Origin: an uncultured Planctomycetota bacterium
GTDB lineage: Bacteria; Planctomycetota; Planctomycetia; Isosphaerales; Isosphaeraceae
Length of the DNA stretch: 64,000 nt
Assembly: GCA_963845755.1 (NCBI GenBank)
Contig: CAWJTV010000019.1
Location: 320,001-384,000, forward strand
Reading direction: 5' to 3'
Positions 31,330 to 44,447 of this stretch are shown here, piece after piece. The notes beneath the pieces were generated by a model. The model was given only the letters and a program-made list of their open reading frames with translations. It made no database searches and was not told where the DNA came from. Numbering within the stretch: the stretch's first letter is position 1; each line of letters starts with the position of its first letter. A program made the position numbers and the translations under genes.

Positions 31330-32046
31330 TTCACCACAGAGTCACAGAGAGCACAGAGAAGACAGGAACAACCAGAACTCGATCCCGGATTCCTCACCAC
31401 AGAATCACAGACAGTATAGAAGATAATGAAACATGATAATCTATAAATTATACCGAATTGCGATCATAACGTCTTTCCGCCTTTTCGTATTCTCTGTGTA
31501 ATCTGTGACTCTGTGGTGAACCAATCCGATCCAAGCCTCTCTCGGTTCGCCCCATCGGAAAACCGGGCTAGAGCTTCCTGCGTTTGATCCCTTCCTTGAG
31601 CAATCGCACATTGAAGTTGATCAGGAGCCCCTTCGAGATCTTCGCGAGTTTCATGTAGGTGAGCAACTGGGCTTCATGGATCGGCGACGAGTTCATGGAC
31701 CGCCTTGACCTCGACGATCAGCAGGCCGGGGAGGAGGATGTCGATGCGGAGGTCGTCGTCCAGGGCACGGCCTTTGTAAATGATCGGAAGCGGGTCCTGT
31801 CGTCGGAACTCGATCCCGCGCTGTTCGAGCTCATAACAAAGACACGTCTCATAGACCGATTCCAGCAATCCCGGCCCCAGGATGCGGTGGACCTCGATCG
31901 CCGCGCCGATGATCGATTCGGTAAGAATGTCGCGTTCATTGATCGGATCAGGTGTCATCGAACCTTGTTTCTCCGGATGACTCTAGTTCTCCCAAAAACC
32001 TGTCGTTCTCGGTATTTCTCTGTGTTCTCTGTGACTCTGTGGTGAA
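31330..32046. repeat. Four copies of a ~31-bp repeat (TTCACCACAGAGTCACAGAGAGCACAGAGAA) around the GxxExxY gene
   Basis: Plus-strand copies at 31330-31360 and 31393-31421; minus-strand copies at 31490-31520 and 32016-32046. The first and last copies are inverted repeats with 1 mismatch. Confidence 0.9.
31568..31958 (-). CDS. GxxExxY protein (PD-(D/E)XK nuclease-like); frameshift near 31685
   Basis: [38 protein letters not shown]. After the frameshift it reads [26 protein letters not shown]. Confidence 0.9.
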
Positions 32047-32065: not shown

Positions 32066-33039
32066 TCACGTCACTTTGATTTGGAAGCGTTGCTCGCCGA
32101 TCTGGAACTGGACGGTGGCCTCGACGGTGATCTGCGTCATCCGCAGCCAAAGGCCGTTGGGGGTCTTGTTGTGCTCGGCGTGCCAGCCTCCCTTGGGTTT
32201 CCGATAAACACGGACGTGCCTCGGCTCGCAGAACGGGTCATCCGGCCGGCAGATCGGGCAGTCGGGTCGGAGCCGATCCAGTATTCGGGCTTGACCAGGA
32301 GGATCCGATTGCCGATCTCCGAGCCGATCAGCTCGGTCAGGGCCGGGGGGCGGAACGGGCTGGGCCCGTCATCCCAGCCGTGAGTTTCGCCCCGGCCCGG
32401 CAAGTCAGCCGAATAATCGGCCGTCGCGGCAGTTTCGACCTGGGGCGCATCGAACCGGTACCGGCCGTTGCCGACCAGGACCTCGGCCTTGTCGGCCAGC
32501 ACGGTCTTGCTGACGCGGACGAACATCCCGTGCGTGCTCTGAAGATCGGTGACGACCCATCGGTGAATGCCGCCGACGTTCTGATAGGTGATCTCGACGT
32601 GCCTGGCCGACATGCGATTGTCGAGTCGAATGCGGAGGTCCCCCTCGGTCCGGCCGATAACGAACCGCGGCTCGCGGATCCGGATGATCTCGCCATCGAT
32701 CCGCCCGTCGTCGAAGACGGTCAAGAGCGCGATCGGCGGCCGGGCAGTCGGCCGGAACGGGCTGGCCGACCGCGCGGCCGGCTGCGGTTGTTGGCCGCTT
32801 GCCGGCGCCGGCGGCGGGGCCGAGGGCACGGCCACCGGAATCGGTGGCTGACCCTTCAGGCCGGAGAGCAGCGCCTGGCGGACGTCTTCCTCCGTCTCGA
32901 TCAAGGTGCCGGAGCGCTCGACGGGCTGTTGAGCCTGGCCGGCCGGGGGCCGCAGGAGCGGGTCCGGACGCGACTCGACCAAGGTGCCGGATCGTTCCGC
33001 ATTCGGGTTCGGTTGACTCGGTCTGAGTGGTTGAGACAT
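32066..33039 (-). CDS. FHA-domain protein with a second FHA-like domain; frameshift near 32262
   Basis: FVIGRTEGD...MSARHVEI...DLQSTHGMF. The C-terminal part reads YWIGSDP..CEPRHVRV..NKTPNGLWLR..QIGEQRF. Confidence 0.82.
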
Positions 33040-33104
33040 CAATTCGTCTCCTTGCTGCGACCAGAGACTGGGAATCAGTACGGGTGCCGGACGTCGCGGC
33101 GCAT

Positions 33105-33462
33105 TCAGGTCGTGGGCAGCACGTCATACCAGTCGTGGACGCCCGGTTGGAGTATTCGTTCAGCAAGGGTCTCGAGCTGATCGATGTCCTGGGTTGCCTC
33201 GATCGCGGCGCGGGTCGTGGCATCGGGCGCGCCGAACCGCCTGGCCCCCTGACGAAGCAGGATTCGCCGCGCCTCGTTGAGACGGCCCTCCAGCCGGCCT
33301 TGCTCAAATATCCACTGATACATCTTCGAACCCACTAAGCTCGAACCCATGTTCACCGCCCTTCCAGCACGGCAGACGAGCCGTCACTTCGTCCGCAAGT
33401 CGCAGACCCATGAGCCGGTACGTCGCGGTCCCGAGCCTGGCCGCTCGCGGCGGCGGCTTCGT
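33105..33462 (-). CDS. Rpn-like C-terminal cassette 3 (degenerate 5' part; intact 81-aa DUF4351-like ORF at 33105-33350)
   Basis: KPPPRAARLGTATYRLMGLR... followed by MGSSLVGSKMYQWIFEQGRLEGRLNEARRILLRQGARRFGAPD...HDWYDVL. Confidence 0.75.
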
Positions 33463-33465
33463 GGC

Positions 33466-33831
33466 TCACAGAGTGCCCAGGAGGCCATTCCAGTCGTGGA
33501 GACTCAGGTCGACGATCCGGTCGCTCAGCCGCTCCAGGCGATCGAGATCGCCGATCGCCTCGATGGCGGCCCGGGTTGTCTCGTCGGGAAGCCCGACGCG
33601 AATCCCTCCCAGTCGGAGGAGGAGCCGCTGCGCCTCGCGGACGCGGCCTTCATTGCGCCACTCGATGAGTCCCTCCCCCCGGCCTTCCTACAAGATGAGC
33701 TGATACATCGCCGATTCACGCATGTTGTACACTCCGTCCACTAACTGTTTGGCAAACATCGGCTGATAACGCAGCGCCATCAGAAAGAGCGTGGCGATCC
33801 AGAGCTTCTCCGCCCGCGGCACCGGCTTCAT
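33466..33831 (-). pseudogene. Rpn-like C-terminal cassette 2 (in-frame TAG at 33688-33690)
   Basis: MKPVPRAEKLWIATLFLMALRYQPMFAKQLVDGVYNMRESAMYQLIL*EGRGEG...EAQRLLLRLG..HDWNGLLGTL, colinear with the C-terminus of the upstream gene. Confidence 0.8.
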
Positions 33832-33834
33832 GGT

Positions 33835-34694
33835 TCACAGAATGCCCAGGAGGCCATTCCAGTCGTGGATGCTAGTATCCAGCACCCGTTTGGTCAGTTG
33901 CTCCAGTCGTTCGACATCGCGGATGGCCTCGATGGTGCCCCGAGTCGCTTCGTCCGGCTCTCTGAAGCGGGCCTCACCCAGGATCAAGAGCATCCGCTGC
34001 GCCTCGCCGACACGACCCTCGTTGCGGCCCTCGCTCAGGGTGGCCTGATAGGTAGTGGATTCCCGCATATTCTGCACTCCTTCCAACAACTTCCAGGCGA
34101 ACGCTTGCTCGTAACGCAACCCCATCAGCCAGTAAGCCGCGGTCCAGAACTTACCTGCCCGCGGCGGCGGCTCAGCGTTGATCCGCTCGGCCATCCGCCG
34201 CACCAACTCGGGCAGCGACTCCTCCACGACGTTGGTCAGCGGGGCCAGGGGCACCAGGTTGACCCCGCCGGCCAGGTACGCCTCGGGGTCCTCCTGCCAG
34301 AGCCGCACCACGCGGTAATTATACCGATTCGTCTGCCAGCCGTCGGGGAGCTGCCGCTCATAAGTCCCGGTCAGGCCGGGCGAGTTGGCCTCCTTGCACA
34401 GGAGCACCAGGACGGTGAGCACCGGCAGGTTGTGGCGATAATCGAGGGCGACTTGACGGTACCAGAGCGTCCGGGCCAGGCCGGTGTCATGGTAGGAGTG
34501 GGGCTCGATATTGATCAGGTAGGGCTCGGGGCCATCGACGGCAGCACCTTGTCGGCGGAGGCGGTCAGGGTGGTGATGTCCGAGTCGATGACGGTGACCG
34601 GCCCGAGGGGGCCGATGGCGAACCGTTCCAGCCAGGCGTCGGGGCCCTCCCAGACCAGTTCCTTGGCCGAGACGTCGAGGCGGTTGAAATCCAT
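33835..34694 (-). CDS. Rpn/YhgA-like (PD-(D/E)XK, DUF4351-tailed) protein; frameshift near 34540
   Basis: DVSAKELVW..AWL; DSDITTLTASADKVL; PYLINIE; RHNLPVLTVLVLL; YRVVRLWQED; LVPLAPL; MRESTTYQ..EGRNEGRVGEAQR. Confidence 0.75.
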
Positions 34695-34820: not shown

Positions 34821-35222
34821 TCAGGACCTGCTCGACTGACGAACAACCGCAGGTCGCTTCGCCGCGCGCGCCGTTGCTATCGGACCAGACATCCCCGCTA
34901 CCTCGAACAGGCCCGATGGGTCATGACGAAACACCTGGATCAGCCTCAAGGCCGCCTGCGACGGCTTCCGATGGCCCTGTTCCCAGCTCTGAACCGTCTT
35001 GGGCGACACGTTGAGCAGTCGAGCGAAGACGGCCTGGGACATGCCGCTCGCGAGTCGGATCTTCACCAGTTCCTCGGCGCCGATCTCCGGCGGCCGGTCG
35101 GGCAATTCGAGGGTCGTGGTTTTCAGGATGATCTCGCCTTTCGCGTGGCGGATCGCTTCTTCCAGGCCCTTGCGGATCTGATCCGCGACCGGGAGCCGTT
35201 TCCGCTGGTCCTTCATATTCAT
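34821..35222 (-). CDS. higA: HigA-like XRE/HTH antitoxin
   Basis: IRLASGMSQAVFARLLNVSPKTVQSWEQGHRKPS; lies directly downstream of the RelE-like toxin. Confidence 0.85.
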   Translation of the reverse strand: MNMKDQRKRLPVADQIRKGLEEAIRHAKGEIILKTTTLELPDRPPEIGAEELVKIRLASGMSQAVFARLLNVSPKTVQSWEQGHRKPSQAALRLIQVFRHDPSGLFEVAGMSGPIATARAAKRPAVVRQSSRS

Positions 35223-35576
35223 TCACACCTTTCTCGCTCGGCGAGTCCGATCTTTGAGTATCTGGACGAGCTGACGGTAGAGTTTCTTGTCGTCCGCCGA
35301 GAGATCGTCCTTCTGATCCTTCCCGTAAACTGTGATGAGATGGATCTGGTCCACCTCCTCGAGGTGCAAGTAGATCACCCTGACCCCGCCCCGTTTTCCC
35401 TGACTCCGTCTCGGGTCGGCGACCCGCATCTTCCGGAGACCCCCGCAACCTTGCACAACCGCGCCCGCATCGGGATCATTCAGCAACTCTCGCTGCAAGT
35501 CGGAAAGCGTTTCGTCGGACAAGTGCACCTTGACCCATTCGGTGAACTCTCTCGTTTCGACGAACGTCTTATTCAT
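35223..35576 (-). CDS. higB: HigB/RelE-family toxin
   Basis: FVETREF..LQRELLNDPDAGAVVQGCGGLRKMR..GKRGGVRVIY..YGKDQKDDLS. Confidence 0.88.
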   Translation of the reverse strand: MNKTFVETREFTEWVKVHLSDETLSDLQRELLNDPDAGAVVQGCGGLRKMRVADPRRSQGKRGGVRVIYLHLEEVDQIHLITVYGKDQKDDLSADDKKLYRQLVQILKDRTRRARKV

Positions 35577-35905: not shown

Positions 35906-38197
35906 CTACTCGGGTAACACTTCGATCGTGATCTCTTGAAACTGAAGGACCGAGTCACCCCAGACAACGAAGGCGATTCCCCCTGAGCCGTACCACCCGG
36001 AGGCGTCCATGTACTCAGCGACCTTCTTGCCGTTCACCGAAGTGGAAATCCGATTCCTGATGGCTGTGATATCCAGTGTGTTCCATACATCGGCAGCGAC
36101 AGGAACCGATTCGGCCCGCTTCTCCCAGGCAATGCCGTGCCAGTAGGGATGATTACTCATTTTCGTGATACTCCCAACAGGTGTCTGCTCCCTGTCGATG
36201 GTCGGCCACAATCCACGACGGACCAAATAGCCGTTTCTGTTATCGCCCACGGGAGAGCGGCGAATCTCAATGTTCCCGCCTCCTCTTTCTTGGTGATCGT
36301 CCTCACGGAATTTGATGCGGAGATGAAAGTTCGCGAAGTCTTGCCGTTGAGCGACGAGGACGGCCGCTTTCCCATTCCCTTTGCCCTCCAGTACACCACC
36401 TACCATCCTCCATTCACCGCCGTTGTCGTATGCTATATCCCAGCCATCCAAATCCTTACCGTTGAACAGCGATACAAAGCGCCCCTGATCGCCTTTCTCA
36501 GGGGCCCGCGCGACGGGAGGCTCGATTCGGACGTTCGTCCCCTTGTTGCCTCCCTCTCGGACGGTCATATCATTTCCGGATTCCTCAGTTCTACCCTGCT
36601 TCACTTTCAACCCTTGTCCGCCGGGAAGCGGTGTGATCTCCGTGGGAGCCCCGCCTCCCGGCGGCTGGACCTTGACCGTTCCGTTGTCAACGATGACTTC
36701 TGACTGATCCGGGGCGTTCTTCAGGACGATGTCTCCATCCTTCGTCTTGATTCTGATGACGACTGCCCATGCGACGAAGAACGCCGTGATCAGGATTCCC
36801 GCGGCCACCGCCGGCCACATCCACGAGGACGATCGTCGACCCGCTCCGTCCACCGATGGATTGGTCTTGGCTGACGCAGATTCCGTCTGCCGCAGATCGA
36901 TCAAGCTGTCCCACATTGGTGCTTCGTGCGGCGTCCCCGTTGTCTTCTTGGATGTGGTCAAGGTCGCAGGTGGCAAGTTCTCCGCAGGCTCAGCCGGCAT
37001 CGATTCCGCCCTCGCTGCAACCGATTGTCCTGGTTGAGAGACCTCCGGCTTCGATCCCACGGCCCCAAGGGTCCCCGCTTTGAAGAACGGCTTGAGCGCC
37101 TGCGCCACCCCTTTGGGCTCCTGGAACCGCCGCTCAGGCTCCTTCGCCATCATCTTACTCACTACGGCCGCCAGCTCCGCAGGCACTTCCGGCCGCGCCA
37201 GGTTCAGTGGTGTCGCCTCCATCGAGTGGTGCGCCTGGAAAAGTTCGTAGAGGCTGTCGGCATGGAATGGTGGGCCGCCGGTCAGGAGGTAGTAGAAGGT
37301 GCAGCCCAGGCTGTAGATGTCCGCCCGGATATCGGCCTTGCGGGCATTGCTGATCTGTTCGGGTGCGATGTAGTCGGGCGTGCCCAGCATCTGTCCATCG
37401 TTTGTCAGGCTCCGATCCGTCGAGCCCTCGCTCCGGATCTTGGCCAGGCCGAAGTCGAGCACCTTGATCAGGGCGCGCTTGCCATCGCGAGTGAGCATCA
37501 AGTTGCTGGGCTTGATGTCGCGGTGGACCATGCTGTGCTCGTGTGCGTGCTGCAAGCCCAGCGCCGCCTGACCGATGAACGCGCAGGCGTTGGCCACGGG
37601 CAATGGCCCCTTGGCCTGGACCATCCGCGCCAGGTCGAGGCCCTCGACGTACTCCATCGCCAGCACGAGGCTCTCGCCCATGCGAATAGCTGCGTAGGCG
37701 GTGACCACGTGGGGATGGTGCAGCTTGGCGGCGTTGCGGATCTCGGCGAGGAAGCGGTCCAGGACGCCGCGACGATTGATCAGGTGGCTGCTGACGACCT
37801 TGAGGACCTCCTTCCGCCCCATGATCTTGTTCTCGGCCAGGTAGACGACGCCCATGCCGCCGCGGCCCAGTTCGCGGAGGACTTCGTAATCGGGGTGGTC
37901 GGCCAGGCCGGGTGGCAGCGTGCAGGCCGCGGGTGGGACCAACGAACGCGGCCCGGCGTCGAGCATCGAGAGTCCCGCCATCGAGGAGACGACCGGCGCG
38001 GGCGAATCGGGCCGGCCCTGGGCGCCGCGGAGGCGACCAAGGAAGCTATCCGAGGAGAGTTCGGCAACGCGGCGACGGCAGTCCGGGCACGACTCCAGAT
38101 GCTGGTTGACCGATTCGGCCGAGGCATCATCGAGCTTGCCCATCCCGTAGGAGGAGAGCGTCTGGTCGGTCGGGTGCAGGGCTTGCGGGGCGTTCAT
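35906..38197 (-). CDS. Ser/Thr protein kinase 1: zf-HC2 N-terminus, kinase domain, TM helix, C-terminal DUF1080-like domain
   Basis: HLESCPDC; LGRGGMGVVY; HRDIKPSN; DFGLAK; GTPDYIAPEQ; TM helix; FVSLFNGKDLDGW...WNTLDI..VNGK. Confidence 0.92.
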   Translation of the reverse strand: MNAPQALHPTDQTLSSYGMGKLDDASAESVNQHLESCPDCRRRVAELSSDSFLGRLRGAQGRPDSPAPVVSSMAGLSMLDAGPRSLVPPAACTLPPGLADHPDYEVLRELGRGGMGVVYLAENKIMGRKEVLKVVSSHLINRRGVLDRFLAEIRNAAKLHHPHVVTAYAAIRMGESLVLAMEYVEGLDLARMVQAKGPLPVANACAFIGQAALGLQHAHEHSMVHRDIKPSNLMLTRDGKRALIKVLDFGLAKIRSEGSTDRSLTNDGQMLGTPDYIAPEQISNARKADIRADIYSLGCTFYYLLTGGPPFHADSLYELFQAHHSMEATPLNLARPEVPAELAAVVSKMMAKEPERRFQEPKGVAQALKPFFKAGTLGAVGSKPEVSQPGQSVAARAESMPAEPAENLPPATLTTSKKTTGTPHEAPMWDSLIDLRQTESASAKTNPSVDGAGRRSSSWMWPAVAAGILITAFFVAWAVVIRIKTKDGDIVLKNAPDQSEVIVDNGTVKVQPPGGGAPTEITPLPGGQGLKVKQGRTEESGNDMTVREGGNKGTNVRIEPPVARAPEKGDQGRFVSLFNGKDLDGWDIAYDNGGEWRMVGGVLEGKGNGKAAVLVAQRQDFANFHLRIKFREDDHQERGGGNIEIRRSPVGDNRNGYLVRRGLWPTIDREQTPVGSITKMSNHPYWHGIAWEKRAESVPVAADVWNTLDITAIRNRISTSVNGKKVAEYMDASGWYGSGGIAFVVWGDSVLQFQEITIEVLPE

Positions 38198-38403
38198 GGG
38201 ATCGGTCTCCGACTTCGAGTCCGGATCGCGTTCGACGGGTCGATCACTCACACAAGAGAGAAAGGCGGTTAAGACGTGGGACCTGCCGCGAAAATGCGAA
38301 AAACTTTCGAACGATCGCCAGATTCTCGCCGTATCCTCTTGAAGCGGCTCGACTTCACCCTGATCTCGTTGTTTCGGGTTGGCCCCGATTCCGGAGCCGA
38401 TGG

Positions 38404-38718
38404 CTACCACAATCCGATCCGGCGCCGCACCGCGTCTTCGACGATGGTTAGTTGATCCGGCGGGAGGCTCCCCAGTTTGCGGACCAGTTTGGCGTGCGGG
38501 ACCGTGAGCATGTTCTGCGCATCGAAAACCCCGGCCGTAAGGAACCGGGACCGGACGGCGACCTCGAAATTCGACTCGCGGGCGCTGGTCGTGTGAGCCA
38601 CCAGCGTGACCAGCGCATCCTGGGGCCCGGCCGGAACGCTCAAGACCACGCAGGGACGGACTTTTCCGGCCATCCCCAGATCGACGATCCAGACCTCGCC
38701 GCGGTTAGGAGTAGGCAC
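38404..38718 (-). CDS. mazF: MazF/PemK-family toxin
   Basis: PNRGEVWIVDLG..KVRPCVVLS..LVAHTT..KLVRKLGSL. Confidence 0.88.
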   Translation of the reverse strand: MPTPNRGEVWIVDLGMAGKVRPCVVLSVPAGPQDALVTLVAHTTSARESNFEVAVRSRFLTAGVFDAQNMLTVPHAKLVRKLGSLPPDQLTIVEDAVRRRIGLW

Positions 38719-39012: not shown

Positions 39013-41331
39013 CTATTCCTGGACGTTCATCGCGTAAATGAAGAGAGTTCCCGACTTCACGAACAATCCGATCGCCCCCGTGTAATCACTGGCCGGAGGA
39101 GTCTTGCAGGCCAATTCCCACTTCTCCTGCTTGATGGCGACTCGCGCGATGTTCTCGCGGTGGATTTCGAACCGGATCAGGAACGACTTCTCGGGAGCGA
39201 AATGCTCCGGTTTCGTGTCGGACTCGGGAGGTTGGAAGTCGAGCGAGGGGTGCCCGACCTGGATCTTGCCCCCCTCATCCTTCACGCGTACCGTGATCGC
39301 CCGCCAACCGTTTGGACCGCGATGAGCCCGGAGCGCCAGGAATGCTTCCGTTCCCTGGGTCGCGGTCAGGGTGAGCGTGAGCGTGCGCGCGCTTGTAACT
39401 CTCGCGCTTCGTGAGCAGCAGGTTCCCGTTCGGCCCCGCCGAGAGGACCAGCGCCTTTTCGTTGATCTCGATGAAATCGGGGTCGCCGAACTGCCACGCC
39501 TTGAGTTTGTCCGCCGTCAGGGTCGGCCAGATGCCCCCGCGGGGTTGGCCACCGTCGGGATTGGCCAGCCGCTCGACCCCGGCGTGGACGCGCAACTGCC
39601 GGATGTCCAGCGCTGGCTTCACGACGGTTTTCTCGAGGTCGAGCAGACCATTCCCTACGGAAGCCTTCATGATGTTGAGGGAGGGCTTGGAAGTGTTGAG
39701 TTCTGGTACGGCCGCGGAAGTCGTGGCTTTCGGGACGTCCGCGATCGGTACGACGCCTGCCTCACCGAGCCGACTTTCCTGAGCGATCCGCGCCGGGGGC
39801 ACGTACCGACCGGAGTGAGCGTCATCGCTCGGTTTCTTGGCACCGCCTCGATCCTCAACTTCCGATCGCGTTGCGCCGACAAGCTCCGGTGGATCGTTAT
39901 TGCGGCTTTGCCGCCCCGGGGCGAAGCCGAGCGTCCAGGTCATGGCGAGGCCGAGCAGCAACGCACCACCCGTAATGCACGGCCACAGCCAGGGCAAGCC
40001 TTTCGCCCCTCGCTGGATCATCGCGGACTGCTCCCCGGAGAGGCCCTCCTTCCGCCCGAGGTCGATCATGTCCAGGGCCTGTCCGGGATGCGCGGGCTTC
40101 GCCTGCTTCTCAACCGCCGGCGCGGCGGTTGTCGCTACCTTCGGAGGAAGTGCGGCCGCTGGACTCGCGACGGCTCGCTCGGCCGGGGACGCTTCGTCCT
40201 TCGTCTCCCCCGGCTTGAAGAACGACTTGATCGCCTGAGCCACCTCGCCGGGAGTCTGGAACCGACTCGCCGGCTCCTTGGCCATCATCTTGGCCACCAG
40301 GGCCGCCAGCTCCACCGGCACCTCCGGCCGCGCGAGGTTCAACGGCGTCGCGGTCATCGAGTGATGCGCCGTGAGATCTCGGAGAGGCTGATGCCCGAGA
40401 ACGGCGGGCGCGCCGGTCAGGAGGCAATACAAGGTGCAACCCAGGCTGTAGATGTCGGCGCGGATATCGGCCCCCTGAGCGTTGAGGCTCTGTTCGGGTG
40501 CCAGATAATCGGGAGTGCCCAGCATCTGCCCCTCGCGCGTCAGTCCACCCTCGCTCAGTGCCTCCTGCGTCGCCTTGGCCAGGCCGAAATCGAGGATCTT
40601 GATGACCGACCCAGTTCCCTGGCGAACGAGTATGAGGTTGCGGGGCTTGATATCCCGATGGACCATCCCGCGCTCGTGGGCGTGCTGGAGTCCCAGGGCT
40701 GCCTGGTAGACGAAGTTGCAGGCGTGGGCGACCGGGAGCGGCCCCTGGGTCGCGACCAGCCTGGCCAGGTCGAGGCCCTCGACGTACTCCATGACCAGCA
40801 CGATCCGGTCGCCCGCCCGCATCGCCGTGTAGGCGGTGACGAGGTTGGGGTGGTGGAGCTGGGCGGCGTTCTGGATCTCGCGGAGGAACCGGTCCGAAAC
40901 GCTACGACGATCCATCAGGTCCCGTCTGACGACCTTGAGCACCTCCTTGCGCCCCATGAGCGTGTTCTGTGCCAGGTAGACGACGCCCATCCCGTCACGG
41001 CCCAGCTCGCTGAGGACCTGGTAGCTGGGATGATCGGCCAGGCCCGGCGGGAGCGAATCGGCCGGCGGTTCGGCCGTATTGGTGGGGCCACCTGCCATGG
41101 ACGAGATCCCCGAGCACGACGAGTCGAGCGAAGGCGGCGAATCGGGCCGATTCGGGGCGTTACGAACCCGGACAGCAGAACGGTCTGAGGAGAGTTCGGC
41201 GACCCGTCGGCGACAATCCGAGCACACCTTCAGATGACTCCGGACCGACTCGGCCGAGCGCCGTCGAGGTTGCCCAGGCCGTGGGCGTGCAGCGTCTGGT
41301 CGGTCGGGTGCAGGGGTGGCGGTGCGTCCAT
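39013..41331 (-). CDS. Ser/Thr protein kinase 2 (several frameshifts; glycine loop reads GRDGMG)
   Basis: Starts MDAPPPLHPTDQTL, homologous to kinases 1 and 3. HLKVCSDC; HRDIKPRN; DFGLAK; GTPDYLAPEQ; TM helix; divergent C-terminal domain. Confidence 0.85.
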
Positions 41332-41386
41332 CGATCGGGCTTCCACTCCGGTTCAAACGGTCACTCGCCTGGCCAGTCGACGGCCG

Positions 41387-43910
41387 TCAGTCGGGCTTTG
41401 TCGTCTTGCTCGAAGGCATGGACAGAGAACTGCTCTTTGGGCTCTGTTTCAGCTTTGGCTTATTTGCACGACGATAGGCGTCGGGGTTAAGCGACAACAT
41501 CCTCTGCTTGTCCTTGATCTGCGAGAAGGCTTTCTTGCAAAACTCGGATGGTCCGATGAATAGAGGGGCTTTCCTCTGCTCCTTCAGGGCTTTGATCGCA
41601 TTCGTGACCTCCGTGTCCTTCTTCAGTTCCTCGTACTCCTGTGAGACTTTGTCGAAAATCGGTTTCAGCTTGTTGCTCTCCTCATAGAACTCCGCCCTCC
41701 TCGTCAGGAAGATCTCGCTGAGCCTGTCAATCCTGGCCTGACCTGGCCGACGCTTCACGGCGATTGCGAATTCCCGATTGGTGTTTCTCAGATTCGCGTC
41801 CGCAGCTTGTCGCTCCTGCTGCAGAGCCTGGCGGGCCGGCGCAGTCGCGGGATTACTCGGCAGGTTCCTGAGCTGCAAGTCCAGGTCATTGATGTAGGAT
41901 TGTAGGTTGATCCGTAGATCGTCGAGGCCCTGGACAAAGTTCTCGATCTGCACGGCCTGGGTCAGATCACTCCAGGCCCCTTCCGTCGCCTTCCAGTAGG
42001 GGACGAGCCTATCGTATCCGTCCCGGACCTGGTATTCCGTCGCGATGACGTAGAAGCGCCCTTCTTGCTTCAGGCCGTGTTTGGCAAGCAGGATGGCCTC
42101 GGGGGAGGAATCTTCGGACGATGGCTTGTCCTCGAGTTTTGCCTTCGAATCGAGAGTTTGGATCGGAGTAGGAACGGGTTTGGAGTCCGCGGGCTGCTCC
42201 TTCGCGGTCAGATTCGTACCGTTCTGAAGGCCCTCGTCGACGCGGCGCGTGTTCTCCGAATCGAAGCTCGCGACGACTTTCCGATCATGGCTCGCTGGTT
42301 TCGCCTTAGGTGACTCTGGGTCCGAGGGAATCGGATCCCACCGGTCCTTATCTCCGGCGCGGGGCGTCTCGGGCGGCCGTTCTCGCAGTGCCCGGATGGC
42401 CGGTCTTCCGAGTCGAGGTGGCCAGGGATGGAAGCGAATCGCTCTCGCCCTGATTCGTCTTCGAGTCGATGCTCAACTTCCAACCCACGGCGATCCCGAT
42501 GACCAGTAGGGCAGCGGCGGCCAGGGGCCACAACCAGGCCGGAACGCCTCGGCGTTCGCGCAGGGCGCGGACTTCCGCCGACAGGTCGGCTTGCGGATTG
42601 ATCTCGACGAGCGTGTCCCAGGCGGAATCGGGCGGCGTTGACGGTTTCGCCACCACCACTGCGGGGTCCAGTGATACGACCCTCGTCGTCGGCGCCGGAG
42701 CCTGATCCGCCCCACGCGATTGCGGGACGGGTGGCGGCGCATCGCCCCGGGAGAGCTCCGGCTTCGATGGCTGAGACGCCGCGGTCTCTTTCTTGAGGAA
42801 TGGGATCAGCGCCTGCGCCAGTCCCTTGGGTGTCTGGAACCGACGCTCCGGCTCCTTGGCCAGCATCGTGGCCACGAGGACCGCCAGCTCCATCGGCACG
42901 TCAGGACGCACGAGGTTCAATAGCGGCGCGTCCATCGAGTGGTGTGCCTGGTAAATCTCGTAGAGCGTCGTGGCCTGGAACGGTGGGCGACCCGTGAGCA
43001 ATTCGTAGAACGTACAGCCCAGGCTGTAGATGTCGGCGCGGATATCGGCCTGCCGGGCGTCGTTGATCTGCTCCGGGGCGATGTACTCGGGCGTACCCAG
43101 CCACTGGCCCGCGGCCGTGAGCGAACCGTCCGCGGTCCGTTCGCGTTTCACCTTGGCCAGGCCGAAGTCGAGGATCTTGACCACCGCGCGATTCCCGAAG
43201 CGGACGAGCATGAGGTTGCTGGGCTTGATATCGCGGTGGACCATGCCCAGCTCATGGGCGTACTGGAGCCCGAGCGCCGCCTGGTGGATGAAATAGCATG
43301 CGTGGACCACCGACAGCGGCCCCTTGGTCTTGACCGTCCTGGCCAGGTCGAGGCCCTCGACATACTCCATGGCCAGCACGAGGTTTTCGTCGAATCGGAG
43401 TGCCGAGTAGGCCGTGACGATGTTGGGGTGGTGTAGACGGGCGGCGTTGCGGATCTCGGCGAGGAAGCGGTCCATGACGCCAGGGCGGTTGATGAGGTGG
43501 CTGCTGACGACCTTCAACACCTCCTGGCGACCCATCAGCTTGTTCTGAGCGAGATAAACGACTCCCATGCCGCCGCGGCCCAGTTCTCGAAGGATTTCAT
43601 AGTCGGGGTGATTGAGCAGGCCCGGAGGTAACGTGTTGGCCGATTCCGGAATCGGTGAGCAGGCCCCGCCCGCGTTCGTCGCCGGGCCGTTGGTCGCCGA
43701 GTTGACCGGAGTGGGCGAGCCGGAGTTTTCCTGGGCGTCGCGAGGCCGACTCAGGAAGCTATCGGATGAGAGCTCGGCGACCCGGTGCCGGCAATCCGGG
43801 CATGTCTCCAGGTGTTTGTTGACAGCATCGGCCAGGAGGTCTTCGAGCTTGCCCAGGCCGTAAGCGTACAGCGTCGGGCCGGTCGGATGGTTCGCTTGCG
43901 TTGCGTTCAT
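41387..43910 (-). CDS. Ser/Thr protein kinase 3 with a helical/coiled-coil C-terminal domain; frameshift near 42400
   Basis: HLETCPDC; LGRGGMGVVY; HRDIKPSN; GTPEYIAPEQ; TM helix. The frame of ORF 41387-41953 stays open up to about 42420 and overlaps the end of the kinase ORF. Confidence 0.85.
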
Positions 43911-44447
43911 GAGATCGGTCTCCAACCTCGAGTCCGGATCGTGATTGATGGATCGATGACTCACACAAGATAGGAAGGCGGTCAAAACGCGGGACCTGCC
44001 GCGAAAACAGAAATTCTTTTCGAAGGATGTTCCTGATCGTCTGGTGACAGGCCAAGCCATCTGCCATAAGTGTTTTCCAAGGCGGTTGATCAGCCGGCTA
44101 TGGAATTCGTGGTCCCTCGGCCGACGGCTCGGGTATTCGGAACCGCGAACCTGACCCCCCGGTCAAGCCTGAGTTGACCCACGGCTCGTTCACAGGCACT
44201 CCCACACCGTACTACTGCCACGCGAGAAGCACGCATGGGTCGATGATTCGCTGCGAGCGGTTCTCTTCTCGGCGGCGGATCTCCCCGGTAAGATTACGAA
44301 GCACCTATACACGACACTGCGGAATGGACTTTCTCTGGACGTGGACTTCAGTCACACTCGCATCCGTACGGTGCGAGGACTGTTCTTGCCAGGTCGTCTC
44401 GCCAAGCGAGACGCCGGAAGCGCGGGACGTGCCGCGAAAACGCGCGA

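Follow-up and report, generated by a model that had tools for sequence, protein, structure and literature searches.

Phage-defence rpn genes of Escherichia coli encode a long protein, RpnL, and, within the same gene, an antitoxin, RpnS, that corresponds to its C-terminal tail (Zhong et al. 2023, PMC10400941). According to the text of that paper, the action of RpnS is limited to an RpnL whose tail and repeat number match its own, and a second copy of the tail can be found downstream of rpnE (ypaA) and, in some strains, of rpnC (rpnCSs). The products of these additional copies, RpnCSs and RpnESs, are described there as clustering with their own upstream tails, and the downstream copy can be lost either through a deletion or when the N-terminal domain becomes fused to it; recombination is suggested as the source of such copies, and its authors also suggest that RpnL may promote these events. 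A related arrangement is present in a 64,000 nucleotide (nt) stretch of DNA, hereafter the window, from an uncultured soil planctomycete of the Isosphaeraceae (assembly GCA_963845755.1, contig CAWJTV010000019.1, positions 320,001 to 384,000 of the forward strand). In the window, an Rpn-like gene that ends in its own tail (cassette 1) is followed directly by two tail-only units (cassettes 2 and 3), all on the minus strand. Similar arrays recur in related genomes, and comparison of homologues shows that their tails have been exchanged by recombination near conserved boundaries, between genomes. We read the locus, with moderate confidence, as an Rpn-type toxin and intragenic-antitoxin defence gene whose downstream units are former or alternative tails.

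Layout of the locus and of its sister loci

Units 2 and 3, of about 365 nt each, copy only the last ~112 codons of the Rpn-like gene (Table 1). A repeat search of the window returned a 269-nt pair with 72% identity at a spacing of 369, and a 58-nt family of three copies (71–78%, spacings 369 and 345). Gapped alignment of the units gave identities of 70% (242/345) between units 1 and 2, 58% (199/345) between units 1 and 3, and 61% (211/345) between units 2 and 3, with a 24-nt insertion in unit 2 that amounts to two additional four-residue repeats relative to cassettes 1 and 3. Tandem Repeats Finder did not report the array, because its copies are too diverged. The last 30-nt window of cassettes 1 and 2 reaches 97% identity, and the two stop/restart junctions differ by 6 mismatches in 59 nt, which is the best 59-nt window of their register; at p = 0.72 the probability of at least 53 matches in 59 is 8e-4 per window and, since there are about 211 such overlapping windows, conservation of the junction is just moderately above chance. 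The 5' third of cassette 3 and its DUF4351 part lie in different frames, and the latter forms a separate, tail-only open reading frame (ORF) downstream of the gene (33105–33356, 81 or 83 amino acids (aa)), while cassette 2 has none. A scan of the locus found no sigma-70-like promoter, using models that do not cover planctomycete promoters, and terminator-like sites showed no excess over shuffled sequences.

Much of this layout had been proposed in an initial annotation of the window. The six junction mismatches, the in-frame TAG of cassette 2 and the ATG contexts of the three units (letter for letter) are all present as it described them, and so are the coordinates and order of a full gene followed by two tail units, but cassette 3 is not an intact 115-codon copy, and the gene is frameshifted as assembled.

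A genome of the same genus carries two syntenic loci, L028 and L029, with about 82% DNA identity to the window including the flanking genes. In both, the nuclease part is joined directly to a cassette-2-type tail, which is followed by cassette 3, so that the window has an additional 369 nt (cassette 1) between the nuclease part and cassette 2. Cassette 2 shares 81–85% aa identity with the primary (nuclease-fused) tails of L028 and L029, compared with 65% to the primary tail of its own locus, which, judged by these identities, makes it orthologous to the tail that is expressed at both loci of the sister species. There are two routes to this difference: a new tail may have displaced cassette 2 in the window lineage, or cassette 1 may have been deleted and the nuclease re-fused in the sister lineage, and as each needs one event the comparison does not decide between insertion and deletion. 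All three loci keep cassette 3, together with its frame-broken 5' part, its leader and its ATG. The window copy shares 79% identity with its counterpart in L029 and 46% with the primary tail of its own locus, and an independent contig (run X2) is identical to the window over 33191–33427, within this cassette. In L028, about 300 nt more are found inside cassette 3, between the parts that align to window positions 33257 and 33256; they represent a further, frameshifted partial tail copy, making this array one unit larger.

Table 1. Coordinates of the Rpn-like gene, its tail cassettes and their landmarks in the window
Feature	Position	Strand	Remarks
Rpn-like gene (RpnL-type), nuclease domain and tail	33835..34694	-	ATG 34694, stop 33835-33837; 860 nt as assembled
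Nuclease domain	34174..34694	-	profile match, conserved residues, fold of homologue model
1-nt frameshift site (KVL|RVDG) in the assembly	34538..34543	-	alignment with L028, L029, C11 and short-read contigs
Tail cassette 1 (type A, expressed tail)	33835..34177	-	linker helix, four-residue repeat helix, DUF4351-like bundle
Internal ATG 34068-34066, with GGAAGGAG at 34084-34077	34066..34084	-	predicted start of a 77-aa RpnS-like product (34068-33838)
Tail cassette 2 (type B)	33466..33834	-	in-frame TAG 33688-33690, two extra four-residue repeats
Tail cassette 3 (type C)	33105..33465	-	5' helix part 33357-33465 out of frame
Cassette 3 open frame	ATG 33350 (81 aa) or GTG 33356 (83 aa) to stop 33105-33107	-	ORF list
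Stop/restart junction, cassettes 1/2	33811..33869	-	53/59 identical to junction 2/3
Stop/restart junction, cassettes 2/3	33442..33500	-	53/59 identical to junction 1/2

The genome from which the window derives holds about 10 paralogous loci, of which about 4 look intact as assembled. The closest paralogue, C11 (304302–305202, minus strand), is 79% identical in the nuclease part, has two frame changes and carries no extra tails. This number of paralogues bears on a possible role of the extra tails in cross-immunity, by which they would neutralise other Rpn toxins, whether from paralogues in the same genome or incoming, in the manner of the orphan immunity genes of polymorphic toxins. The restriction of RpnS to an RpnL with matching tail and repeat number (PMC10400941) speaks for such a role, and a complex model pairs the product of cassette 3 with the cassette-1 tail (see below), a result that speaks for likeness and not for specificity. 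Against it, the tails of the paralogues in the same genome reach at most 56% identity to cassette 3 and 48% to cassette 2 (C11 being the best in both cases) and, since Rpn toxins work within the cell that makes them, only gene transfer would obviously bring one in. The initial annotation offered immunity to other Rpn paralogues as one of two functions; it found no support in these identities, and we regard it as very improbable.

Tail arrays and tail exchange in the family

Of the 121 genomes of the taxonomic family, 63 had tail matches. The survey for similar arrays that had been advised at the outset was run on 57 Isosphaeraceae-type loci, chosen by two nuclease-domain peptide patterns alone (three were cut too close to judge), and showed that such arrays recur: at least one extra downstream tail is present in 16 of the 57, from about 10 genomes, and two extra tails in four. 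The relationships of the extra tails were examined in a set of 28 that lie downstream of, and in the same locus as, a primary tail, a set that includes loci picked as array-like. The tail's own primary was the nearest relative in just three cases (five with near-ties), and most of the others had their nearest relative in the primary tail of another locus or in the positionally equivalent extra tail of a related genome.

Over 109 full-length homologues there is no correlation between the identity of the nuclease part and that of the tail to the window (r = -0.05), and in the closest homologues the nuclease is 85–91% identical to the window and the tail 55–80%. When linker-helix type and DUF4351-core type are each scored as A or B, all four combinations occur among homologues (AA 14, AB 5, BA 5, BB 8), and the core type of cassette 3 is matched at 60% identity or more in just one of the 109. 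As judged from these alignments, tails have been exchanged by recombination near conserved boundaries and between genomes.

A rival reading is a store of silent cassettes kept for regular tail switching, in which the downstream units would be donors or partners in frequent homologous recombination at the conserved junctions, by deletion and fusion or by gene conversion. A population might in this way alter the specificity of its RpnL/RpnS pair, for example to escape a phage-encoded inhibitor. The near-identical ends of cassettes 1 and 2 and the conserved 59-nt junction fit this picture, as do the fusion of the sister-species nuclease to the cassette-2 type, the four helix-by-core combinations, the 25 of 28 extra tails that are nearest to a tail elsewhere (mostly the primary of another locus) and the suggestion that RpnL may itself promote such events (PMC10400941). 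A short metagenome contig (run X1) joins a cassette-1-type helix to a cassette-2-type core, perhaps as the allele of a relative, but the contig joints have sides of 20–50 nt, show less than 95% likeness and come from soil metagenomes, and were discounted as evidence for this organism. At 58–70% identity the cassettes would be poorly suited to homologous recombination beyond the junction, the presumed donors carry lesions (TAG, frame break), and no recombinase gene or specific site was found nearby. The exchanges that can be seen separate species or genera and may be rare, spread over long times. In silent-cassette systems of the pilE/pilS type, a single population gives rise to recombinants of the expressed copy with silent ones. 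We consider a switching store quite unlikely. The notion of a pool of tails swapped by recombination, put forward in the initial annotation, is supported at the level of the family; as an ongoing process at the window locus it is a possibility.

Some further arrangements were seen among related loci. In L086 (2501–3392) a complete tail (profile positions 1–113) lies between the first 95 and the last 70 nuclease-domain positions, and this is a rearranged copy. Whole Rpn-like genes stand in tandem, two or three together, in L044, L035 and G001:C1 (6175374–6177478), as reported for E. coli rpn arrays, and in L044 two full genes are separated by a tail stub of 43 residues.

Nuclease domain, helical tail and predicted internal start

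A protein search returned 559 homologues, mostly 282–298 aa in length, the best of which is 85% identical to the window protein. Many carry the JGI source name 'predicted transposase YdaD', which presumably derives from COG5464, one is named 'Rpn family recombination-promoting nuclease/putative transposase' (NCBI), and PF14261 is present on many of the 559. In the text of Zhong et al. rpn genes are defined as COG5464, and stand-alone RpnS genes are annotated as DUF4351 (PMC10400941). An AlphaFold model was made of an intact homologue, P0001 (85% identical; predicted local distance difference test (pLDDT) 88.3, from a 112-row alignment). Its residues ~5–135 match NucS (2vld_B) in VIA-align with Z 8.7 and a root-mean-square deviation of 3.0 over 102 aligned residues. 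Further matches of the model were VC1899, AF1548, Can2, R.BspD6I, McrC and Card1 (Z 5.9–6.9), and many other restriction-endonuclease-like chains match the same stretch at Z 5–6.9. Foldseek with the whole model returned nothing at E ≤ 0.001, and its weak rows were likewise restriction-endonuclease-like; a PDB sequence search with the family profile gave only chance matches to PD-1, which were set aside. Across the family, D48 (P0001 numbering) is invariant, D7 and E64 are conserved in at least 90%, and position 66 is H or Q. By order and spacing, though without significant alignment, D7, D48 and E64-x-H/Q66 match the motif of RpnA, for which D11, D63, E82 and Q84 are reported as essential (Kingston et al. 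2017, PMC5350276). A PD-(D/E)xK nuclease followed by what is probably a DUF4351-type helical tail is also the architecture of the RpnL/RpnS of Zhong et al.

The DUF4351 model matches 28 of 54 tails at E ≤ 0.01. Among the window tails cassette 3 is the only one to touch this model, at 22 bits, which is below the cut-off of 25. A model of the window's 77-aa tail product (pLDDT 91.8) has helices at residues 5–35, 40–48, 52–61 and 70–74, and such a long helix followed by short ones fits the account of RpnA-S as a bundle of three helices, the first of them long (PMC10400941). Foldseek with the tail model found nothing at E ≤ 0.001, and a wide VIA-align comparison gave generic helical bundles, the best being DdrC at Z 5.9; the RpnA-S structure 7TH0 was not among the matches listed, an absence that is no evidence of different folds. 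Two other models were also hit: NCBIfam FliH models match 7 of 28 homologues (P0056, P0095, P0104 and others; best E 4.8e-10), and Pfam Yae1_N matches 9 of 54 tails. These were discounted, as they arise from the EGRxEG repeat helix, and they could mislead automatic annotation.

The stretch from the internal Met to the DUF4351 core measures 15+4k residues (15, 19, 23, 27, 31, 35 or 39) in 103 of the 109 full-length homologues, and EGRx/EGLx repeats are visible in an alignment of 28 homologues. Zhong et al. describe four-residue repeats that lie 8–20 residues after the start of RpnS, and variation in their number is presented as a hallmark of Rpn tails (PMC10400941). The internal Met is invariant in all 28 aligned homologues. 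In 45 primary tails the Gly codon before this Met is GGR in 44 of 45 cases, compared with 422 of 943 elsewhere in the same ORFs (p = 3.6e-14), and the Glu codon before it is GAA in 25 of 32, compared with 389 of 1073 elsewhere (p = 2.6e-6), p-values that are overstated because the sequences are related. This codon pattern is what a selected Shine-Dalgarno-like GAAGGRG, 8–13 nt before the internal ATG, would give. We infer from it that initiation may occur at the internal ATG and yield the 77-aa tail protein; the separate start envisaged by the initial annotation is in this way upheld indirectly, through the invariant Met and the purine-rich codons, but separate translation remains a prediction.

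A complex model of the 77-aa and 81-aa products (the latter from cassette 3) scored 0.77, compared with 0.01 for the best of three controls, and so passed a mark that is reached by 116 of 157 solved complexes and by 2 of 215 mismatched pairs, counts that are only approximate here because self-made alignments were used. Its runs agree in at least 92% of contacts, the pLDDT of the partner is at least 84, and the interface lies on the long first helices. As a similar dimer (RpnA-S, 7TH0) has been solved and close cousins pass as well, this result points to likeness, not specificity.

Reading of the locus, its neighbourhood and known systems

Under the preferred reading, of an Rpn-type toxin and antitoxin gene with former or alternative tails downstream, the full-length RpnL-like protein would be a PD-(D/E)xK nuclease toxin with a helical tail. 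The internal Met, with its purine-rich Shine-Dalgarno-like stretch, would give rise to a 77-aa RpnS-like protein, which would pair with the tail of the long form via the long first helix and keep that form in check. The 3' end of the gene would have been exchanged by recombination near the conserved tail boundary (AEPxPRA), with the old tails staying downstream. Cassette 2, still fused to the nuclease in the sister species, would then be a dead relic with a TAG in the window, and cassette 3 an older tail, common to all three loci of the genus, that has lost the frame of its 5' helix and kept the 81-aa frame, along with an ATG and a purine-rich leader of its own. By analogy with ypaA downstream of E. 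coli rpnE, cassette 3 may be a candidate stand-alone RpnSs-like gene. Toxicity of the nuclease, initiation at the internal ATG, the antitoxin action of the tail, a role in defence and any present function for cassette 3 are what we infer for this locus, whereas its anatomy and fold, the patterns of conservation, the mosaic tails of its relatives and the recurrence of arrays are direct observations.

Several observations weigh against this reading. The window protein has no Pfam match at E ≤ 0.1 and no NCBIfam match, two intact paralogues of the same genome have no Pfam match at E ≤ 1, TIGR01784 matches just 4 of 28 homologues (best E 0.024), and the cassette 1 tail has no DUF4351 match at E ≤ 0.01. 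Alignment of the family with E. coli RpnA by hhalign gave a probability of 0.7%, a negative of low sensitivity because the profile is shallow (Neff 2.4); RpnA itself matches PF04754 (Transposase_31) at 1.6e-91. In the locus itself, the gene as assembled is frameshifted and the same gap is present in L028, so a real, shared lesion is possible. The TAG of cassette 2, read from the assembly alone, sits 11 codons past its internal ATG, and under the standard code this cassette is therefore unable to yield a tail protein. L029 has a 1-nt break in the part of the cassette 3 frame next to the ATG, and for cassette 3 alone the ratio of nonsynonymous to synonymous substitution rates (dN/dS) is 0.47–0.94, not significantly below 1 (the best pair, with L029, giving p = 0.078).

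On the question of family, the description as an Rpn-like nuclease in the initial annotation is borne out by the fold, the order of motif residues, DUF4351 on tails, the four-residue steps and the names of homologues, but not by curated models, and of the hidden Markov model (HMM) searches it called for, that with DUF4351 was positive on 28 of 54 tails while PF04754 was negative at its curated cut-off; TIGR01784 was negative at its cut-off as well. Because the structural and evolutionary signs fit while curated HMMs fail, the gene is filed as a putative distant, HMM-invisible branch of the Rpn kind.

The frameshift results from a missing base at ~34541–34543, between the codons for D48 and E64. 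All four short-read contigs covering this site (three of run X4, all covering it, and one of run X1; two studies) have one more C, at plus-strand positions 34538–34540. Two of these contigs hardly differ from the window (by 1 letter in 113 and by 2 in 138), and the best metagenome run shared 0.15 of the sampled words, as contigs only. The added base restores KVLRVDG, as in all homologues, and both L029 and the paralogue C11 are intact here; intact homologues of the gene product have 286–290 aa. The nuclease domain shows dN/dS values of 0.21–0.28 among the window, L028 and L029, and neutrality is rejected for the window and L028 (p = 0.0015). Since the base is carried by four of four contigs and purifying selection acts on the nuclease domain, an intact gene is probable in nature, the gap being a consensus error or a rare variant. 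More generally, long-read assemblies can falsely break a toxin gene. L028 (in the part aligned to window 34540–34620) has, besides the same 1-nt gap, an extra base ~70 nt upstream, and its called protein (P0008) contains 24 garbled residues across the catalytic D48 region; these represent either two assembly errors or a compensated double frameshift.

The lesions raise the prospect that the array is pure duplication debris, its units being inert leftovers of unequal crossing-over or tail replacement in a locus that is decaying as a whole. Every one of the three units is lesioned in the assembly, the closest paralogue C11 has two frameshifts, and among 41 downstream tail pieces from 24 loci only 18 retain an uninterrupted reading frame that opens at a Met close to the aligned start and reaches the end of the domain. 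Individual tail pairs range in dN/dS from 0.35 to 0.98, the highest value coming from an orthologous pair of extra tails elsewhere, and for cassette 3 neutrality is not rejected. On the other side stand the recurrence of arrays in 16 of 57 loci from about 10 genomes, the fact that three loci from two genomes retain cassette 3 together with its ATG and purine-rich leader, the short-read contigs that contradict the frameshift, and the purifying selection on the nuclease domain. The pooled dN/dS of five pairs of extra tails is 0.51, significantly below 1 (p = 4.6e-5) and near the 0.47 of pooled primary tails, although the pooled value is optimistic (lowered) because detection by protein profile favours well-kept copies. 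As a class, the extra tails look selected, and debris is an unlikely explanation of the array. Neutral decay, which the initial annotation had named as the outcome that would speak for debris, is accordingly not what the pooled extra tails display, but cassette 3 by itself is not distinguished from neutrality.

A further step would be to suppose that the lineage keeps a heritable archive of tails displaced through recombination with other loci or other genomes, maintained under selection both as stand-alone antitoxins and as raw material for exchange. We hold this to be doubtful; if true, it would mean that toxin-antitoxin specificity evolves by cassette turnover, like the tips of Rhs and contact-dependent inhibition (CDI) toxins. 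The idea is open to experiment, as stored tails can be tested as functional antitoxins, and a change of specificity by cassette exchange, and not by repeat expansion alone, can be looked for. Rpn systems are recently recognised and very widespread defence genes, and loci such as these bear on what drives the hypervariability of their tails. They form a natural series in which tail replacement, displacement and re-fusion can be read from neighbouring genomes, and for annotation they imply that short DUF4351 ORFs, or 'gene fragments', are to be expected regularly downstream of such genes.

Directly upstream, on the same strand as the Rpn-like gene, are a gene for a RelE-family toxin (35223–35576; PF06296, E 2.8e-8) and an abutting Xre-type helix-turn-helix gene (HTH_3; 34821–35222, E 1.4e-9). 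The two form a second toxin-antitoxin pair (34821–35576, minus strand), which is syntenic in L028 and partly so in L029. Downstream lies a gene for an FHA-domain protein (32137–33042), and the flanking genes are syntenic in the sister loci. Beyond it, a PDDEXK_3 (PF13366) gene at 31568–31958 (minus strand) is apparently split: a 94-aa ORF covers profile positions 3–82 of 117, and a 42-aa ORF in another frame resembles the C-terminus, by reason of an assembly frameshift or as a pseudogene. Three genes for Ser/Thr protein kinases follow in a row on the other side (35906–38410, 39275–41356 and 42348–44060, minus strand), two with an N-terminal zf-HC2 (anti-sigma-like) motif and one with a C-terminal 3-keto-disaccharide hydrolase domain. 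With its Ser/Thr kinase and metabolic genes, the wider neighbourhood is not an evident defence island.

Displaced 3' gene ends are also familiar from polymorphic toxins. Orphan C-terminal toxin tips behind cdiA and rhs are promoter-less, share a conserved junction with the expressed gene, and probably originate as old tips displaced by new ones. In those systems, however, the variable part is toxic, comes with its own immunity gene and acts between cells, whereas here it is a putative regulatory or antitoxin tail on an intracellular nuclease. A language-model feature search pointed to a cyanobacterial 'transposase YdaD family' with DUF2887 and DUF4351 (score 0.97, 291 aa; PF11103 and PF14261 each on 92% of members), a lead only, which comes with no alignment or E-value.

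The closest described systems are the RpnL/RpnS pairs of E. coli (rpnA-E, RpnP2), as far as their published descriptions go (PMC10400941, PMC5350276). Shared features are the D...D...E-x-Q/H order of the nuclease residues in a protein of ~290 aa, a C-terminal tail that is predicted to be helical and that carries a conserved internal Met behind a purine-rich leader, length steps of four residues shortly after this Met, tails that are far more variable than the nuclease, and many paralogues per genome. The planctomycete family differs in lying beyond the PF04754 and TIGR01784 cut-offs, in its negative hhalign comparison with RpnA and in the failure of its tail model to retrieve 7TH0; its toxicity, internal initiation and defence function are predictions from sequence. 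Its extra tails resemble the RpnSs copies (rpnE-ypaA, rpnC-rpnCSs) in being tail-only and directly downstream of a full gene, and the deletion and fusion described for those copies is the relation seen between the window and its sister species. E. coli, in the same descriptions, has one extra copy that is near its own tail, whereas here there are up to two, with 40–65% identity to their own primary, and several of the planctomycete extra tails include the linker helix upstream of the Met. A full-text literature search found no other paper on such tail arrays, although the supplements of PMC10400941, which were outside its reach, may show some. Extra tail genes downstream of rpn, and the loss and fusion of tails, are already known in E. 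coli; what the present comparison adds is the Isosphaeraceae-type lineage, the frequency of its arrays, arrays with two extra tails, the foreign affinity of those tails, and the mosaicism of helix and core in all four combinations.

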